Below, piece after piece: positions 55,549 to 61,580 of a stretch of DNA of 64,000 nt. Under the pieces are notes generated by a model, which saw only the letters and a list, made by a program, of their open reading frames with translations, made no database searches and was not told the DNA's origin. Source of the stretch: Candidatus Marinacidobacterales bacterium (GTDB taxonomy: Bacteria > Acidobacteriota > Vicinamibacteria > Marinacidobacterales > SMYC01); contig CBDCYI010000005.1 of the NCBI GenBank assembly GCA_965224085.1, forward strand, positions 2,208,001 to 2,272,000, given 5' to 3'. The translations under genes and the position numbers were made by a program. Numbering within the stretch: position 1 is the first letter of the stretch; each line of letters opens with the position of its first letter.

Positions 55549-56607
55549 ATGCACGCCATGAAACCCATTTTCTGGACCACCCTATGTCTGATCGCGACCC
55601 AAGTAAGCGCTCAGCCGCGCGAGCCGCACCGTTATTTCAAGGACATCATCGGCCTCAGCGACGCCGAGATCCGCCAAGTGGAGCAAGGTCAAGTCGTCGC
55701 CAAAGTGCTCGACACACCGCTCGCTCACGAAGTCGCTATCTTCGGCGCCGTTTGGGTCGAAGCCACGACCGACTATTTCGTCGAGAAGTATCAGGACATC
55801 GAGAGCTTCGAGAAAGGCGACGGCATCCTCCAGATTCACAAAATCGGCGATCCGTTGAAGCTCGAGGACTTCACGGGAATTCGTTTTCCCGAAGCGGACA
55901 TCGAAGCCATACCCAAATGCAAGATCGGGAAGTGCGCCGTCAAGATCGACGAGGACTCTCTCGTCCGGCTTCAAAGCGAGATCGACTGGAAGGCGCCGGA
56001 TGCCGAGCTAAGAGCGCAATCACTCATCGCCGAGCTCGCACATGAGGGCATTCGTGAGTACCAAAAAGGCGGCGACGCCACGCTGGCAGCCTATCGGGAC
56101 AAAAAACGGCCAACTTACTTGGCGAAAGAGTTCAAGGGCATGCTCGACAACTCGAGCTTTCTTTACGAGTACTTTCCCGAGTTCCACGACTACCTCCTCG
56201 GCTATCCCAAAGCGGAACTCCCGGGAGGCGCGGATTTCTTTTATTGGTCGCTGAACGACTTTGGCTTGAAACCACTTTTCCGCATGAACCATGTCGTCAT
56301 CTACGCCCTCGGAGAAGGGCACAATGCGGGGGTGGCGATCGCGTCCAAGATGCTCTACGCGAGCCACTACTTTCACACCGCGCTCGAGCTGCGCTTTCTC
56401 GTCCGCGACACGGCGAATCCCACAGATGTCGGTTTCTTTTTGGTAAGCGTCAACCGGAGCCGCTCAGATGGGCTCACCGGGTTTTTCGGCTCCATCATCA
56501 AGAGCCAAGCTGTCAAGAGAGCGAGAGACGGGGTCGTGGGCGCGCTTTCGAATGGGAAGAAGAATCTAGAGGCGGGCTACAAAAACGCGATGGCCAGCGC
56601 TCAGTAA
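55549..56607 (+). CDS. Hypothetical secreted protein
   Basis: Signal VSA-Q; FYWS..FGLKP and YASHYF motifs; 352 aa. Confidence 0.75.
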   Translation: MHAMKPIFWTTLCLIATQVSAQPREPHRYFKDIIGLSDAEIRQVEQGQVVAKVLDTPLAHEVAIFGAVWVEATTDYFVEKYQDIESFEKGDGILQIHKIGDPLKLEDFTGIRFPEADIEAIPKCKIGKCAVKIDEDSLVRLQSEIDWKAPDAELRAQSLIAELAHEGIREYQKGGDATLAAYRDKKRPTYLAKEFKGMLDNSSFLYEYFPEFHDYLLGYPKAELPGGADFFYWSLNDFGLKPLFRMNHVVIYALGEGHNAGVAIASKMLYASHYFHTALELRFLVRDTANPTDVGFFLVSVNRSRSDGLTGFFGSIIKSQAVKRARDGVVGALSNGKKNLEAGYKNAMASAQ

Positions 56608-56612
56608 GCGAA

Positions 56613-56641
56613 GAGCGTGCTCCCCATAGGAGAGCACGCTC
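56613..56641. terminator. Hairpin between convergent genes
   Basis: GAGCGTGCTC-9 nt-GAGCACGCTC. Confidence 0.55.
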
Positions 56642-56777
56642 CCAAAGAGGCTTATTCGCCGGCAGGTGGATAGTTCTTGAAGAGCTTCTCGGCGGCTTCC
56701 TGAATATTTTTGGGGAATTATCCGCTTGACTTTCTTCTGAATCGAGACTAATACTCGCCGCTTCCAGGAGAACGATT

Positions 56778-56936
56778 ATGCCTAGACCCACCAAAGACAA
56801 CGAAATTGAGGACCTTGAAGAACTCAGGGAAATCGCCGAGCGCGACCCGCTCAAGGCTCTCGAAGAATTCGTGGGTAAGGTCGTCAAAGACCAGCCGCCC
56901 ACAAATAAGCCAGTTGACTTTCTAGAGCAGACCTAA
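56778..56936 (+). CDS. 52-aa acidic passenger ORF
   Basis: AGGAG RBS; MPRPTKDNEIEDLEELREIAERDPLKALEEFVGKVVKDQPPTNKPVDFLEQT; below the ORF-track cutoff. Confidence 0.55.
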   Translation: MPRPTKDNEIEDLEELREIAERDPLKALEEFVGKVVKDQPPTNKPVDFLEQT

Positions 56937-57123
56937 GACAATCCTCCCCGCAAGCGTTTTTCTGTAATCCCGCTCCGTCGGGTTACCCGCTGAATACAAT
57001 AGCCTCGACCCGGCTTTGGGTAGCTCCCAAGGCCCGGCAAATAGGCGGGAGCTTTCCTCCTTACAGAGAAACGCTTGCAATGGCCCGGCTCCAATTTCGG
57101 GCCCGGGCAAAACGGGAGGTTAG
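56933..57123 (+). ncRNA. Candidate structured RNA / leader
   Basis: 18-bp closing stem 56950-67/57061-78, three-way junction and extra hairpin; the non-canonical pairs are G-U on the + strand. Confidence 0.5.
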
Positions 57124-57180
57124 AAACATGCTTAGGCTTTTGTTCGTCATCCCCATTCTGCTTTGGGCTTTTACCGCTAG

Positions 57181-59183
57181 CCCATGTTTACCCTTTATGG
57201 GCACCCTAACGCTCGTAAGTGACTGAATTCAAAGGAACGGGGGTTGAATTTTGCCCAAAACGTAGAGACAGATATTGTGCTTTGAGCGCCATTAATACGT
57301 TGTAATCGTGGACAATGATATGTAGTATGCGTGAGGACAGGTTATGTTCTTCCGCATCGTTCGGGCCGCAGGCGGCAAAGGGGTTCAACATGAGTATGTC
57401 CGCCTGGTCGAGTCGTATCGGGAGCACGGCAAGCCGAAGCAACGCGTAGTGTGCAACTTGGGGCGCAAGGATCTCCTAGTTGCCAATCTCGACTCCCTCA
57501 ATCGGTTGCTTGGGGCCGGTGAACCGGCCGACACCGAGCGAGCAGCCGAGCAGATCGCGGGGGCAGACGCGTGGGATTGGGGTCCGATGGTGGTGACGGC
57601 GACGCTGTGGCGCGAGCTCGGACTGGAGCAGATTCTCGACCGGCTCGGAGGCCGCGGCAAGCGCGACGGAGTGGCGCTAAGCGAGCGAGCTTTGGTGCTG
57701 GTCGCCAACCGGCTATGTGCTCCGTCAAGCGAGCACGGTCTGGCGCGCTGGCTCGAGACCGACTTCGTCTGCGACCGGCAGGGGCGGCGGTGGGTGCCGC
57801 AGTGGCGCGATGATGGGGAGCGGCGAGCGAGTCGCTCCCCGCGGGTTCGCGTGGAGTTTCGCCAACTCAAGCAATGGTACCGAACGCTCGACCAGCTGCA
57901 TGCCCGCAAAGAACAGATCGAGAAAGAGCTGTTTTTGCGCTTGCGGGATCTGTTTTCGCTTGAGGTTGACATGGTGTTTTACGACCTGACGTCGACGTAC
58001 TTCGAAGGTCAAGGCCCTCCGGGGCTCGGCGCCCACGGCTACAGTCGCGACCGCAGACCGCGTAACCGGCAAGTGCTTGTCGGTCTGGTGATGGTGGACG
58101 GTTGGCCGATCGCCCACCATGTTTTCGCCGGCAACTGGCGTGACGCGAAAACGGTGCCGCAGGTGCTCAACGATCTCAACGAACGATTCGGTTTGCACCG
58201 CGTGGTTTTTGTCGGCGACCGAGGGATGGTAACGAGCGACAGCCTGGCGGTGGTGCGCTCGCGCAAGCAGGGCTATCTCGTCGGGCTGCAAAGACGACGG
58301 CGCGAGGAGGTCTATCGTTACATCGAGCGCGCCAGCGGAGAGTGGATCGACTGCCCTGGTGGCATCACGGTGAGCGAAAAAGCCGAGCCACCTAAGACTC
58401 GTGTGCAAGAAGTCCGCTCCGAGCAGTCTGGCGTGCGCATCTTCGTCGTTCACAGCGACGAAAGGCTCGCCTACGAGCGCGGGCAGAGGCTGCGGGCCAT
58501 GGGACGTGCCCGTGCGGCATTCGAGGCCCTCGAGCGCCGCGTGCGCGAGGGACGATTGAAAGCCCCCGAGAAAATCGGTGCCGCCGCCGCGCGCATACAG
58601 GCACGCCACCACGGTCACCGTTACTACGACTGGGAGTACAAAAACGCTCGCTTCCGCTTCTTCGAGCACCCGGTCAACCTCAAGCGCGAGCAAGCCTACG
58701 AGGGTAAGTACGTTATTCAAACCGAGGAGCAAAACCTCTCTCCGGTCGACGCCGTGCGCCTTTACAAGGACCTAAACGAGGTCGAGCGAGCCTTCTCATG
58801 CCTTAAGGATGTCATTGAGATGCGTCCCGTTTACCACCAGACCGATGAGCGTGTGGAGGCACATCTTTTCGTAGCTACGCTGGCCTTCCTTGTGCATCGG
58901 GCTCTTGAGAAAAAGCTCAAGGTCGCCGAACTCGACCTGTCCGCAACCGAGGCACTACAAGCGCTACGCTCGGTCCGGCTCGTCGACTTACAGCTGGGTT
59001 CTGGGCGGACCAAGCGCGTCGTCACGCGCGGCACCGCTCGCGCCAACTCGATCCTGACTGCACTCGGAATCGTTGAACGCGACCCGCCAGCCTTCTCCGA
59101 GGAGGTGCTGTCAGCGTAGAGACAAACCGCGGATCTCAGTCCTTTGTTTATGATGACTTAGAGACCTAAAAGGGAAACATGGG
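57181..59183 (+). mobile_element. IS1634 family element nested in IS1595 passenger gene
   Basis: IRs CCCATGTTT / AAACATGGG; CTAG duplicated at 57177-57180 and 59184-59187. Confidence 0.9.
57344..59119 (+). CDS. IS1634 family transposase (591 aa)
   Basis: YVRLVESYR, FYDLTSTYFEG, GYSRD, VGDRGM and YKDLNEVERAF. Confidence 0.93.
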   Translation: MFFRIVRAAGGKGVQHEYVRLVESYREHGKPKQRVVCNLGRKDLLVANLDSLNRLLGAGEPADTERAAEQIAGADAWDWGPMVVTATLWRELGLEQILDRLGGRGKRDGVALSERALVLVANRLCAPSSEHGLARWLETDFVCDRQGRRWVPQWRDDGERRASRSPRVRVEFRQLKQWYRTLDQLHARKEQIEKELFLRLRDLFSLEVDMVFYDLTSTYFEGQGPPGLGAHGYSRDRRPRNRQVLVGLVMVDGWPIAHHVFAGNWRDAKTVPQVLNDLNERFGLHRVVFVGDRGMVTSDSLAVVRSRKQGYLVGLQRRRREEVYRYIERASGEWIDCPGGITVSEKAEPPKTRVQEVRSEQSGVRIFVVHSDERLAYERGQRLRAMGRARAAFEALERRVREGRLKAPEKIGAAAARIQARHHGHRYYDWEYKNARFRFFEHPVNLKREQAYEGKYVIQTEEQNLSPVDAVRLYKDLNEVERAFSCLKDVIEMRPVYHQTDERVEAHLFVATLAFLVHRALEKKLKVAELDLSATEALQALRSVRLVDLQLGSGRTKRVVTRGTARANSILTALGIVERDPPAFSEEVLSA

Positions 59184-59571
59184 CTAGCGCTCAACCAGCA
59201 GAAAGACGGCTGGCGCGTGTCAAGACAGAATTCACGGGGTGCTTCGACCCCCAGGAGGTGGTGCGCCTGCAGCAAGATATAAAGACGACCAGGCTCCGAT
59301 ACGGCCCCGCTGGTGCACTGCTGAAGCCAGAACTCCTCGCCGCAAGGGAATGCCGAAATCTGAAAGTTGGTCAGGCCGTCCTGATGGTAGGGGAAAAGCA
59401 TAACGCCATCGTGGATCGGAAAACGGTTATCGAGGGAATCGGCATCTTCGTATGCGCGGAAGACCTGAAGGAAGACCCTGGATGCTTCGAGAGAGATTGG
59501 GATGCCGTCGGCGCTGCTACCGGCCTATGGTTTCCGATTGACATGCTGTCCGAGATCAAGAAGTAGTGAGG

Positions 59572-59608
59572 GGTAAAAGGCCGGGAGACTTCCCTCCCGG
59601 CCTTTACC
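59572..59608. terminator. Bidirectional terminator inside the IS1595 element
   Basis: GGTAAAAGGCCGGGAG-ACTTCC-CTCCCGGCCTTTACC between convergent ORFs. Confidence 0.7.
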
Positions 59609-59622
59609 TTCGGGTGGTATAC

Positions 59623-59958
59623 TTATCTGGATGTCAGGCCAGCCCACCATGGCCGGGCCACCATTAGTCTTCGAATTCGACGAAGAAGGCCCCCGCCAGG
59701 ATCGTCAATGCGTGCCGGGTGATGGCTAATAGTTACGCCGCCCTTCCGACCTTCCGGCATACTTCGCTTGAAGAGCTTCTGGACTTTCTTGGCCATATGA
59801 GCGCTGAATTGCTTTTGAAGAATGGTCTGTACGTCTCTGTGGGGAAGCCTATTCTTGCAAACGGGACACTCAAGGTACGGTTCACCATCAACCATGACCG
59901 TCTCTGCTGCGATCTTGCAGCGGCGACATTTGGGCGTTTTGTCCTGGAAGCAAGTCAT
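59623..59958 (-). CDS. Passenger zinc-ribbon protein translationally coupled to transposase
   Basis: ATGA overlap with the transposase stop; CRRC...CPVC. Confidence 0.6.
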   Translation of the reverse strand: MTCFQDKTPKCRRCKIAAETVMVDGEPYLECPVCKNRLPHRDVQTILQKQFSAHMAKKVQKLFKRSMPEGRKGGVTISHHPARIDDPGGGLLRRIRRLMVARPWWAGLTSR

Positions 59959-60866
59959 CGCGTCAACGCTTCGTAGGTGATCCTCTTCCCTAGCGCCCTG
60001 GCGATCATCGAGTCGATGCGCTTCATGGTGTGCCTCTGGCACGAACCCTCGTTGAGCCGGAAGGCGAACTCATCTACGTAGCGGGATAGGTGCTTGCGGC
60101 TCACGTGGTGGAACGTGCCGACGATGCCGCGTTTTAGAAGTGCCCACACGCTCTCTATTCCGTTGGTATGTACGTCGCCGCGCACCCATTCCTCGGCGCT
60201 GTGATTGACCGTCTCGTGCCGGTAGAGGCGGTCCTTCAAACCTGCATAGGCTTTGTGCTCGTCGGTGTGAAGGGTTGAGCCTGCTTCGACGTTCTGCTCG
60301 ATAACCTGTTGCACCCTGTACTTGTCGGTCGTTTCGATGGGAATGGCCACGACGTTGCCGCCGCGTTCGCGCATTCCCAAGACGGCTTGTTTGCCGACAG
60401 GACCGCGGCCGGCCCGGAGCTTCTTGTGGGCGTGCTTATTCTTTTCCTTGCCGCCGATGTAGGTCTCGTCAATTTCGACAATGCCCGAAAGGGGCCATCC
60501 GTTACCCTTGCAGGCTTCGCGGAGCCGCTGAAGCATGAACCACGCGGAAGCCTGCCGGATGCCGAGCTCCTTGGCGAGCTGCATGGACGAAATGCTCTTC
60601 CGGGCGGTGACTAGCAGGTACATCCCGTAGATCCATTTGTGGAGCGGAATGTGTGACCGTTCCATGACGGTTTTCGTTCGGACGGTGAAAACCTCCATGC
60701 AGGCGTTGCAGCGGTAGTAGCCGCCCTTGCGGGTGCCGATGCGTTTACGCTCGTGGCAGTGCGGGCAGCTCACTCCATCCGGCCACCGCCGTTGCTCGAT
60801 GTAGAGTCTAGCTGTATCCTGGTCTGGAAATAACTTGATGATTTCGAGAAAGCTTATGGTTGACAC
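59955..60866 (-). CDS. IS1595 family transposase (ISXO2-like domain)
   Basis: CPHC..CNAC zinc ribbon, VEIDETYIGG, HTDEHKAY, VNHS, HTNGIESVW and YVDEFAFR. Confidence 0.93.
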   Translation of the reverse strand: MSTISFLEIIKLFPDQDTARLYIEQRRWPDGVSCPHCHERKRIGTRKGGYYRCNACMEVFTVRTKTVMERSHIPLHKWIYGMYLLVTARKSISSMQLAKELGIRQASAWFMLQRLREACKGNGWPLSGIVEIDETYIGGKEKNKHAHKKLRAGRGPVGKQAVLGMRERGGNVVAIPIETTDKYRVQQVIEQNVEAGSTLHTDEHKAYAGLKDRLYRHETVNHSAEEWVRGDVHTNGIESVWALLKRGIVGTFHHVSRKHLSRYVDEFAFRLNEGSCQRHTMKRIDSMIARALGKRITYEALTR

Positions 60867-60895
60867 TTGCTCATCGGTAGCTCCTTGTGAGCCAA

Positions 60896-60924
60896 ATGTA
60901 GCAAGCCCAAATTAGAAAGTCAAG
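60896..60924 (-). promoter_or_regulatory. Sigma70-like promoter in IS1595 IR driving transposase
   Basis: TTGACT-17 bp-TACATT on the minus strand, followed by AAGGAG. Confidence 0.55.
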
Positions 60925-61580
60925 CGGATAATTCCCTATTTTTGGCGCTTTTTTCTGGGTTCTCGGAGACCGTGCCGGAGACCGTACCGCGCCAAACCAG
61001 GCGCTTCTCCTTCGCGTCCCACATGTCGAGCGCGACCGTGCCGACCGTGTATTGCCGCACCGTTGTCGTCGTGGAGCCCATGCCCATGCCTCCGCCCCAA
61101 CCCCAGCCGGGACCATAGCCCCAACCGCCACCCATGTAGTTGGTGTCGAGGGACATATTTTGCTTCTTTTCAGCGTGATAGGTGACAAACACGTCCGGGT
61201 TCGAACTCGCTTTCGAAAAACCGTTGGCGGCGAGCTGGCGGTCCACCGCGCTGAGAAAACGCTCGTGGGCGAACGGATCCGTATCCGCGACGTTCGTCTC
61301 GCTGTCGTGCCACGCGTAGGTCTTGTACTGCGAAAAATTCGCCTGCCGATCGTAGTCGTTAGTGACTTTCATGCTCGAGCAGCCGACAGCGGCGCCGAGC
61401 GCCACCGCAAACACGAGTAACTTCTTCATGGTAGCCTCCTAGTAATCCATTGTCTTCGAACCGGTCGGCCGCATCGTGGACACCTTTCCGCACATGCGAC
61501 CCCAAGGAATTGTACAGGCCCACACATTTGCACAAACGTATCACTCTCGCAAGCCAAATTTCAGGCTAGAATCGAAGCCT

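Follow-up and report, generated by a model that had tools for sequence, protein, structure and literature searches.

Layout of the locus

We examined a mobile element in a 64,000-nucleotide stretch of contig CBDCYI010000005.1 from a Candidatus Marinacidobacterales bacterium (hereafter the window; positions are counted from its first letter). The element is an insertion sequence (IS) bounded by inverted-repeat arms at 56713-56735 (plus strand, the end distal to the transposase) and 60914-60936 (minus strand, the transposase end), which are 23 nucleotides (nt) long and 100% complementary in a repeat search, the letters having been read on both strands. Outside the arms stands an 8-bp target duplication, TATTTTTG, whose left copy at 56705-56712 and right copy at 60937-60944 are identical when read directly from the sequence. 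The outer element as found measures 4,224 bp; a nested IS of 2,003 bp (57181-59183) and its 4-bp duplication make up 2,007 bp of this, which leaves an original element of 2,217 bp. An earlier note, made from the sequence alone, had described exact 23-bp repeats, an 8-bp duplication and a size of about 2.2 kb without the nested IS, and all three descriptions hold, the uninterrupted junction itself being present in a second copy. The right arm carries the transposase (zinc ribbon, helix-turn-helix region and DDE-K core) and a zinc-ribbon open reading frame (ORF) that is perhaps translationally coupled to it. The left arm carries the small ORF orf52, a structured leader of about 190 nt and a gene for a secreted protein with four cysteines (the 4-Cys protein). 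A strong hairpin stands where the two arms converge. We consider it highly probable that the whole is an IS1595-family transporter IS (tIS) with ISNwi1-type ends, 2,217 bp long originally, that lies in a DUF4136 gene and was later hit by an IS1634-family element.

The interrupted host gene (60945-61429, minus strand, with its cut-off remainder at 56652-56704) encodes a DUF4136 lipoprotein (PF13590, 135.8 bits over profile positions 1-137 of 152) and was hit near its 3' end. In silico excision of the element together with one duplication yielded a single open DUF4136 frame with its stop at 56652-56654; because excision reopens this frame, and because the second copy has an 8-bp duplication of its own, the insertion is real. 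Among four genus relatives, one retained the left-flank gene (90% identity) but not the DUF4136 gene, and so offered no empty site for comparison. Adjoining the insertion, a 352-amino-acid (aa) ORF at 55549-56607 (plus strand) has a signal-peptide-like start, a good codon score and no Pfam match, and its DNA is 90% conserved in one genus relative.

The nested IS (57181-59183, plus strand) is not part of the transporter element. Its transposase gene at 57344-59119 encodes a product of 591 aa that fits the IS1634-family model (NF033559, 329 bits against a cut-off of 100; PF01609, 32.4 bits), and it is bounded by imperfect repeats and a duplicated CTAG. The genome contains 20 full-length, near-identical copies of this IS, 18 of them with CTAG as the end of the left flank. 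No nested IS is present in the second copy of the outer element. The insertion into the 3' end of the DUF4136 gene probably came first, and the hit by the high-copy IS1634-family element came later. In one DNA run the contig of the nested IS had a depth of about 1,000-2,000, against about 15 for the flanks.

A second, differently damaged copy in the same genome

A search of the bacterium's own genome found one further copy of the element, on another contig; its ends are the same and its 8-bp duplication, CAACGAAA, differs. Missing from it are the nested IS and the sequence of window positions 59261-60112, and with them most of the 4-Cys gene, the hairpin, the zinc-ribbon ORF and 52 residues at the end of the transposase. 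Contigs of DNA run X2 contain both joints of this copy, as skips of 2,007 and 857 bases. The parts that the two copies have in common are 100% identical, and this identity, together with the separate duplication, shows recent mobility. An intact 2.2-kb ancestor thus moved at least once, and each copy was later damaged in its own way.

The second copy (L002, 965-2324) lies inside what appears to be another transposase gene, one IS stacked in another within a genome rich in such elements. The same genome contains about ten copies of a different IS1595-type element (L004-L010 and three further places), with about 70% DNA identity over short stretches; in one of them, L004, the transposase frame is split into ORFs of 241 and 92 aa.

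Transposase and family placement

The transposase, encoded at 59955-60866 on the minus strand, is full length at 303 aa. Its DDE domain matched PF12762 at 166.8 bits (cut-off 27) over profile positions 1-153 of 153, its N-terminal zinc ribbon matched PF12760 at 43.9 bits (cut-off 25.4), and the protein passed NF033547 at 207.2 bits (cut-off 75). In an alignment of the window copy with seven relatives of 41-70% identity (8 of 10 rows used), residues C34, C37, C53, C56, D133, D202, E238 and K245 were invariant in all eight sequences. The hallmarks of IS1595 that we examined are present: the DDE domain, the zinc ribbon, the 23/23 repeat match and the 8-bp duplications, which we found at both genomic copies and at 31 relatives with matches at 7 or 8 of 8 positions. 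The family profiles, together with the non-transposase genes lying within the inverted repeats, bear out the description of the locus as an IS1595 transporter element. The inverted repeat begins GGGAATTAT and K245 stands 7 residues after E238; both agree with the ends (GGnnATTAT) and the DDE-K signature that we take to mark the ISNwi1 subgroup. ISNwi1 elements with passengers range from 1.8 to 4.8 kb, and the length of the window element falls within these limits. A full-text literature search on ISNwi1 found no description of the group.

The start region of the transposase gene (60854-60886, minus strand) is unusual. A ribosome-binding site (RBS), AAGGAG at 60886-60881, is followed after 6 nt by an ATG at 60874; compared with the relatives L020 and L025, two extra bases follow this ATG, which stands out of frame and opens a frame of only 6 codons. 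The long ORF can start only at the GTG at 60866, 14 nt from the RBS. The second copy has the same letters here, as do contigs of runs X2 and X9. Judged from these letters, the transposase is probably translated weakly, as the ATG at a suitable distance is out of frame and leaves the distant GTG as the sole start; this misplaced start codon would hold down transposase output. The earlier note had called the element self-contained; a full transposase does lie inside the inverted repeats, and the displaced, GTG-only start is a caveat to the term.

The same start region raises the question of whether the element is still autonomous. The transposase might be translated poorly or not at all and both copies might be relics, past movement having relied on an earlier intact form or on transposase supplied in trans. 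The two-base difference from the two nearest relatives points in this direction, as do the loss of the last 52 transposase residues from the second copy and the presence of only two copies of this element against 20 full-length copies of the nested IS. On the other hand, the 303-aa frame is otherwise intact and retains every conserved residue. Furthermore, both copies carry the odd start in identical form, which implies at least one move after the change arose, unless its origin lies further back than the comparison of the family indicates. Insertion sequences also commonly limit their transposase through weak starts. We therefore regard loss of autonomy as unlikely, if well within reason, and continue with an element whose transposase is restrained.

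Cargo in related elements

A total of 115 relatives of the transposase were returned, and the best 80 of these were kept for locus analysis. A locus counted as delimited if it showed an 18-nt inverted repeat with at most 4 mismatches and a duplication matching at 7 or more of 8 positions. By this strict criterion 27 of the 80 loci were delimited; two others lacked flanks of sufficient length and the remaining 51 yielded no result. A looser search with the window element's own repeat delimited six of those 51 (L018-L023), with duplications shown for four. All 33 delimited relatives (of 80) measure 1,853-3,828 bp, at least 0.85 kb beyond the transposase in each case, and cargo is therefore the norm in this clade.

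We scanned 33 cargo ORFs from 22 loci. A DNA methylase with or without a nuclease was found at 5 of the 22 loci, RhuM (PADLOC candidate PDC-S05) with an M78 peptidase at one, a PIN protein at one and DUF3800 or DUF6414 at two; the cargo of the remaining 13 had no Pfam match. In this branch of IS1595, cargo is the rule (33/33 delimited) and restriction-modification genes are its commonest recognisable load. At seven loci (L026, L038, L041, L065, L056, L029 and L059) the cargo lies between IS ends with 8-bp duplications and comprises restriction-modification pairs (Dcm with a Bpu10I-like enzyme; Dam with a PD-(D/E)XK nuclease), a fusion of a methylase with an Mrr-like nuclease, RhuM with M78, and PIN; the cargo of L041 and L065 was judged by eye from the ORFs, outside the profile scan. 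Further nested insertions were seen in the methylase-HNH copies of two marine metagenome-assembled genomes (MAGs), at 7150-8400 in L018/L022 and at 7130-8070 in L019, with transposase-like ORFs of 184 + 184 aa and 294 aa that lie at or within the small zinc-ribbon ORF.

That IS1595 elements can carry passengers is, as the earlier note had it, established. The TnCentral preprint contains the definition of a tIS, an IS with genes unrelated to transposition inside its ends, and the ISsaga paper makes the same statement about transporter ISs. Furuta et al. (2010) refer to the 2009 IS1595 paper as one of the cases in which IS elements flank restriction-modification genes or solitary methylase genes.

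orf52, a probable gene of the transposase lineage

orf52 (56778-56936, plus strand) encodes a protein of 52 aa with a net charge of about -6, which confirms the small acidic ORF previously noted in this arm. When five ORFs of the element were compared with the 80 loci by tblastn, orf52 alone matched, at six loci whose transposases are all about 70% identical to that of the window, and a profile search returned the same six of 80. The earlier note had proposed to look for co-occurrence of the cargo across IS1595 homologues, and such co-occurrence exists for orf52 and for none of the other ORFs compared. At all six loci (L018-L023) the homologue lies close to the inner side of the transposase-distal repeat and faces inward, as in the window element; the cargo apart from it consists of a methylase-HNH fusion and a zinc-ribbon ORF of another kind. 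One more homologue, P0016 (72% identity, 50 aa), was found in a large protein collection. Two profile hits in metagenome contigs come down to a shared motif of 18 residues within a long protein that is otherwise unrelated, and no IS1595 signals lie near them.

Over 44 codons aligned with L020, 10 were identical, 15 differed synonymously and 19 non-synonymously, with 14, 7 and 29 differences falling at the first, second and third codon position; this substitution pattern indicates that orf52 is coding. In addition, its codon score of 0.356 is the best among the small ORFs of the element (transposase, 0.22). No family matched it in Pfam, PADLOC, PHROGs or NCBIfam. A 31-nt spacer that precedes orf52 here and is absent from the relatives supplies a -10-like hexamer behind the TTGACT of the repeat.

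Because orf52 has been kept at the same end in the lineage with about 70% transposase identity while the other cargo differs, it is, as far as these sequences go, a gene of the element's lineage rather than free cargo, and its earlier description as a passenger is not sustained. An orf52-type gene inherited with the transposase while other cargo is swapped is a candidate transposition co-factor. The predicted complex of orf52 with the transposase scored 0.34 (best control 0.02) with contact agreement of at least 50% and a partner pLDDT of 56. Of 157 solved complexes 116 attained the mark that this score passes, as did 2 of 215 mismatched pairs; at 0.60 or under, the figures are only 18 of the 157 and both mismatches. 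We tentatively propose that orf52 might be an accessory transposition factor that touches the transposase, and put the chances of this at roughly one in three.

Promoter-like sites and the structured leader

The earlier note had pointed to an inward-facing TTGACT in both inverted repeats, and each of these -35-like hexamers was found to lie within a promoter-like match: TTGACT-18-AATACT at 56726-56755 (plus strand) in the left repeat, and TTGACT-17-TACATT with a TG at 60923-60895 (minus strand) in the right repeat. A third promoter-like site, TTGACT-17-GACAAT at 56914-56942, belongs to an internal repeat-like sequence (56901-56942, plus strand) that overlaps the end of orf52 and matches the left repeat at 16 of 23 positions. 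We considered and rejected the internal sequence as a former end of the element: 16/23 was reached by 3.15% of 2,000 shuffles, a marginal level, and the position of orf52 in the relatives argues otherwise.

Between orf52 and the 4-Cys gene lies a structured leader (56937-57127, plus strand), with a long imperfect hairpin at 56950-57078 (18-nt arms, 94% complementary) and a second hairpin. The structured RNA reported earlier is well supported, since positions 56937-57130 fold at -89.8 kcal/mol (z = -5.9) and none of 200 shuffles was as good. Within it CCUCCC at 56943-56948 pairs with the RBS GGGAGG at 57114-57119, both in the leader fold and when a longer context of 384 nt, beginning ahead of orf52, is folded. 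Transcription from the internal promoter-like site would leave CCUCCC out, and the RBS then pairs with the first codons instead. Translation of the 4-Cys protein would in this way be held down by pairing of its RBS. A comparison of the leader with Rfam 15 gave no family at E ≤ 1, and a search of the genome found it in only two copies, both inside the element.

Instead of a cis-acting leader, the structured region could be a small RNA in its own right or what remains of a palindromic mobile repeat. The promoter-like site just upstream (56914-56942) and the self-contained form of the long hairpin fit this alternative, and one RNA-library contig spans 56973-57131 alone. Against this, no terminator separates the structured region from the 4-Cys start, the RBS of the next gene is paired in all three contexts folded and no Rfam family matches; moreover, no genome copies occur outside the two elements, so it is not a dispersed repeat. 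We judge this alternative to be improbable, at about one chance in five, and retain a cis-acting leader.

The converging ORFs are separated by a G+C-rich hairpin (59576-59605; z of -2.8 on the plus and -3.3 on the minus strand), a likely two-way terminator. Its place between the converging stops suits the bidirectional terminator previously proposed; its T-runs are short and the terminator scan did not call it. In 56000-61500 Rfam gave a single match at E ≤ 1, of this hairpin to the part of the CsrC model that forms its terminator hairpin (E 0.32; 14.8 bits against a gathering score of 61). As for transcription, 16 public runs hold part of the left end of the element, two of them sponge metatranscriptomes. 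Contigs of these two RNA libraries, with 100% identity and a depth of 2-6, cover orf52 (56794-56954), the leader (56973-57131) and the transposase (60680-60830) and give a weak hint of transcription. No X10 or X12 contigs cover 59188-60007 (4-Cys part 2, hairpin and zinc-ribbon ORF), a contig gap that proves nothing.

The passenger gene and its predicted fold

The 4-Cys gene (57128-59566, plus strand) is split by the nested IS into a first part at 57128-57180, which encodes the signal peptide behind an RBS placed 8 nt before the ATG, and a second part at 59184-59566, which encodes the mature domain of 124 aa. In the second copy this junction is uninterrupted, and from it we read a signal peptide of 19 residues that ends in an Ala-Ser-Ala cleavage motif; the secreted 4-Cys protein that the earlier note had placed in this arm is thereby confirmed. 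With a gene that is unrelated to transposition and encodes a signal-peptide protein inside the IS ends, the element qualifies as a tIS. The 4-Cys protein would be its sole true passenger, exported by its Sec signal peptide and held by one or two disulfides.

A word-based search found two close relatives of the protein; when 1.84 billion representatives were searched exhaustively with HMMER, 10 proteins reached E ≤ 0.001. The domain, of about 115 residues, is C-terminal in five of six diverged full-length homologues (P0007-P0010 and P0012; 181-426 aa) and N-terminal in P0011. A signal peptide or membrane anchor is present in several of the proteins that contain it, and in two the N-terminal part is DUF6197 or DUF4875. 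All eight aligned sequences keep C20 and C57; the second cysteine pair is absent in one. Homologues that are 83% identical have unrelated N-termini, joined at three different points; from the sequences we infer that these are open frames running in from other insertions, in which case this homologue, too, would be multi-copy and often broken in its hosts. P0008 and P0011 also have in common a second, unnamed module of about 50 residues, which precedes the 4-Cys domain in one and follows it in the other. The protein was found in none of 100 relative genomes; 400 genomes of the phylum gave one marginal 42-residue match (E 0.0098), and 137 pattern matches in JGI metagenome contigs yielded no confirmed case. 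No Pfam family (SH3 families included), PADLOC model or NCBIfam model matched. The 4-Cys domain is thus a rare secreted family without a database name.

An AF2 model of the domain, built from the eight-sequence alignment, reached a pLDDT of 76.3 and a pTM of 0.65. The structural check that the earlier note had suggested gave a mixed answer: a Foldseek search against the PDB returned nothing at E ≤ 0.001, while in a wide VIA-align search the top 26 rows were all SH3, SH3b or SH3-like, with a best Z of 6.5 (root-mean-square deviation 2.0 over 65 residues). On balance, we slightly favour the view that the protein folds as an SH3-like binding module. The empty Foldseek result tells against this fold, as does the fact that a VIA-align Z below 8 may reflect only a common arrangement. 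A competing pointer came from the protein atlas, which assigned the protein to TraG-D_C (0.96); we set this aside, as its recognition of 2082 falls below the 2300 mark and nothing else supported it.

No intact 4-Cys gene remains in the genome: in one copy the nested IS separates the signal peptide from the mature domain, and in the other only about 41 residues precede the truncation. The passenger does nothing in this genome, and a working cargo module, which the earlier note had thought possible, does not exist in it.

The ORF downstream of the transposase

On the transposase strand, an ORF of 111 aa with two CxxC pairs (59623-59958, minus strand) overlaps the transposase stop at ATGA. The overlap supports the coupling of transposase and zinc-ribbon ORF that had been described before; the gene itself is doubtful, having neither a relative nor a codon signal, and we put its being real somewhat below an even chance. 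Slightly the better account, in our view, is that the stretch from the transposase to the hairpin is non-coding (a 3' untranslated region or decayed cargo) and that the ORF is a chance open frame. Among 5.8 billion clusters its search gave three word-sharing candidates, none of which scored, and where the transposase and orf52 have codon scores of 0.22 and 0.36, that of this ORF is -0.079. Equally little supports an ORF of 85 aa on the other strand (59719-59976), whose codon score is no worse and which matched no family; its comparison with the matching 92-aa ORF of L020 found nothing. The C-terminal 45 residues of the zinc-ribbon ORF are predicted to be disordered, and no similarity to the zinc-ribbon ORF of the nearest relatives was found: BLASTP between the ORFs here and in L020 gave none, and a local score of 22 was matched by 56-69% of 2,000 shuffles, so homology between them was rejected. 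No Pfam, NCBIfam or PADLOC family matched.

Other features speak for a gene. The ATGA overlap resembles the way in which relatives attach their first cargo gene, and the two CxxC pairs have the spacing of a zinc ribbon. In addition, a single-sequence AF2 prediction, made without an alignment, gave pLDDT values of 74-81 at residues 10-40 in the N-terminal part. A Lar-like restriction alleviation family (phrog_6422) was weakly matched at residues 8-38 only (E 0.047), and weakly also by the relatives' zinc-ribbon ORF (E 0.058). In the protein atlas the nearest neighbours were unnamed small hypothetical clusters (representatives of 65-85 aa), and the nearest clusters that bear a Pfam family include zinc-ribbon families (recognition 2521).

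Weighing the element as a whole

Of the three passengers that the earlier note had counted, the 4-Cys protein stands as a clear one, orf52 is a gene of the lineage, and the zinc-ribbon ORF has neither homologues nor a codon signal. It had also been suggested that the cargo might form a toxin-antitoxin or defence module. In the corresponding alternative, orf52, the RNA, the 4-Cys gene and the zinc-ribbon ORF would be a single cargo module, whether toxin-antitoxin, defence, or a secreted effector with its regulator. Relatives do carry methylase or restriction genes (5/22) and RhuM with M78 or PIN (2/22), the C-terminal position of the 4-Cys domain in varied secreted proteins is a layout also seen in polymorphic toxins, and the genes are compactly arranged with signals of their own. 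However, no family matched any of the ORFs: all four were without a match in PADLOC (E ≤ 0.01), Pfam, PHROGs (E < 0.04) and NCBIfam, where PADLOC, Pfam and NCBIfam are libraries that cover described families only. orf52 accompanies different cargo in the relatives and so is not tied to the 4-Cys gene, whose predicted fold is a binding domain and not an enzyme and whose fusion partners are short signal-peptide proteins rather than toxin-delivery scaffolds. Furthermore, the supposed module is broken in both copies with no sign of harm. We find it very improbable. Also a long shot is a bolder idea: that orf52 is the first described IS1595 accessory protein, an acidic partner that tunes transposition, and that the leader gates a secreted SH3-like factor spread among sponge-associated bacteria, which would make the cargo a mobile, regulated host-interaction gene and not a defence system.

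Several points weigh against the transporter IS reading, or against parts of it, that we prefer. The placement of the ends in the ISNwi1 subgroup is provisional. orf52 turned up in the closest sub-clade alone, and not in relatives at 66% and 61% transposase identity, and it could equally be old cargo that was captured once; its complex prediction is a weak pass, of a kind more often wrong than right absent a strong prior. The count of promoter-like sites is not significant (three, against 1.5 ± 1.4 in shuffles), and the leader has no relatives, hence no support from covariation. The RNA-library contigs may stem from carried-over DNA or from the second copy. Finally, no copy in the genome has an intact passenger, and nothing shows past or present usefulness of it here.

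Taken together, these results add one well-delimited example to the transporter insertion sequences and do not overturn current views. The kind of element is known; this one carries a passenger that is new but inactivated, a small gene specific to its lineage and a structured leader outside the known RNA families. The practical value lies in better annotation of such elements, and the questions raised for the bench are whether orf52 binds or tunes the transposase and what ligand the 4-Cys domain has.

Comparison with known systems

The SH3b-type domains that the 4-Cys model weakly resembles include the teichoic-acid-binding domain of SlpA (8alu) and those of endolysin and NlpC/P60 proteins. 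The alignment runs over the beta-strands of the model, and SH3b-type domains are likewise extracytoplasmic and frequently the C-terminal module of a larger secreted protein. Z is only 5.0-6.5 over 55-73 residues with 5-28% identity, and a helical insert at residues 23-54 and two pairs of cysteines set the 4-Cys domain apart.

The closest known elements are those at L018-L023, which occur in three marine MAGs (Amylibacter sp., Halioglobus sp. and Candidatus Poriferihabitaceae). They share with the window element a transposase that is 70% identical, repeats that differ at 3-5 of 23 positions and an 8-bp duplication; an orf52 homologue points inward at the far end, the first cargo gene overlaps the transposase stop, and a small zinc-ribbon ORF lies on the transposase strand. 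Their cargo, by contrast, is a DNA methylase fused to an HNH nuclease (PF01555 + PF01844), with neither the 4-Cys gene nor the leader, and the orf52 homologue begins 11 nt after the repeat, without the 31-nt spacer.

The broader class is that of the ISNwi1-type tIS of the IS1595 family, which were reportedly treated by Siguier, Gagnevin and Chandler in 2009. Like them, the window element encodes one DDE transposase that bears a zinc ribbon at its N-terminus; its short repeats begin GGGAATTAT, its duplication is 8 bp long and extra genes lie between the repeats. It differs from them in its cargo, a 4-Cys secreted domain behind a long structured leader that matches no named family, in the small acidic gene opposite the transposase, which its nearest relatives have in common with it, and in the displaced start of its transposase.

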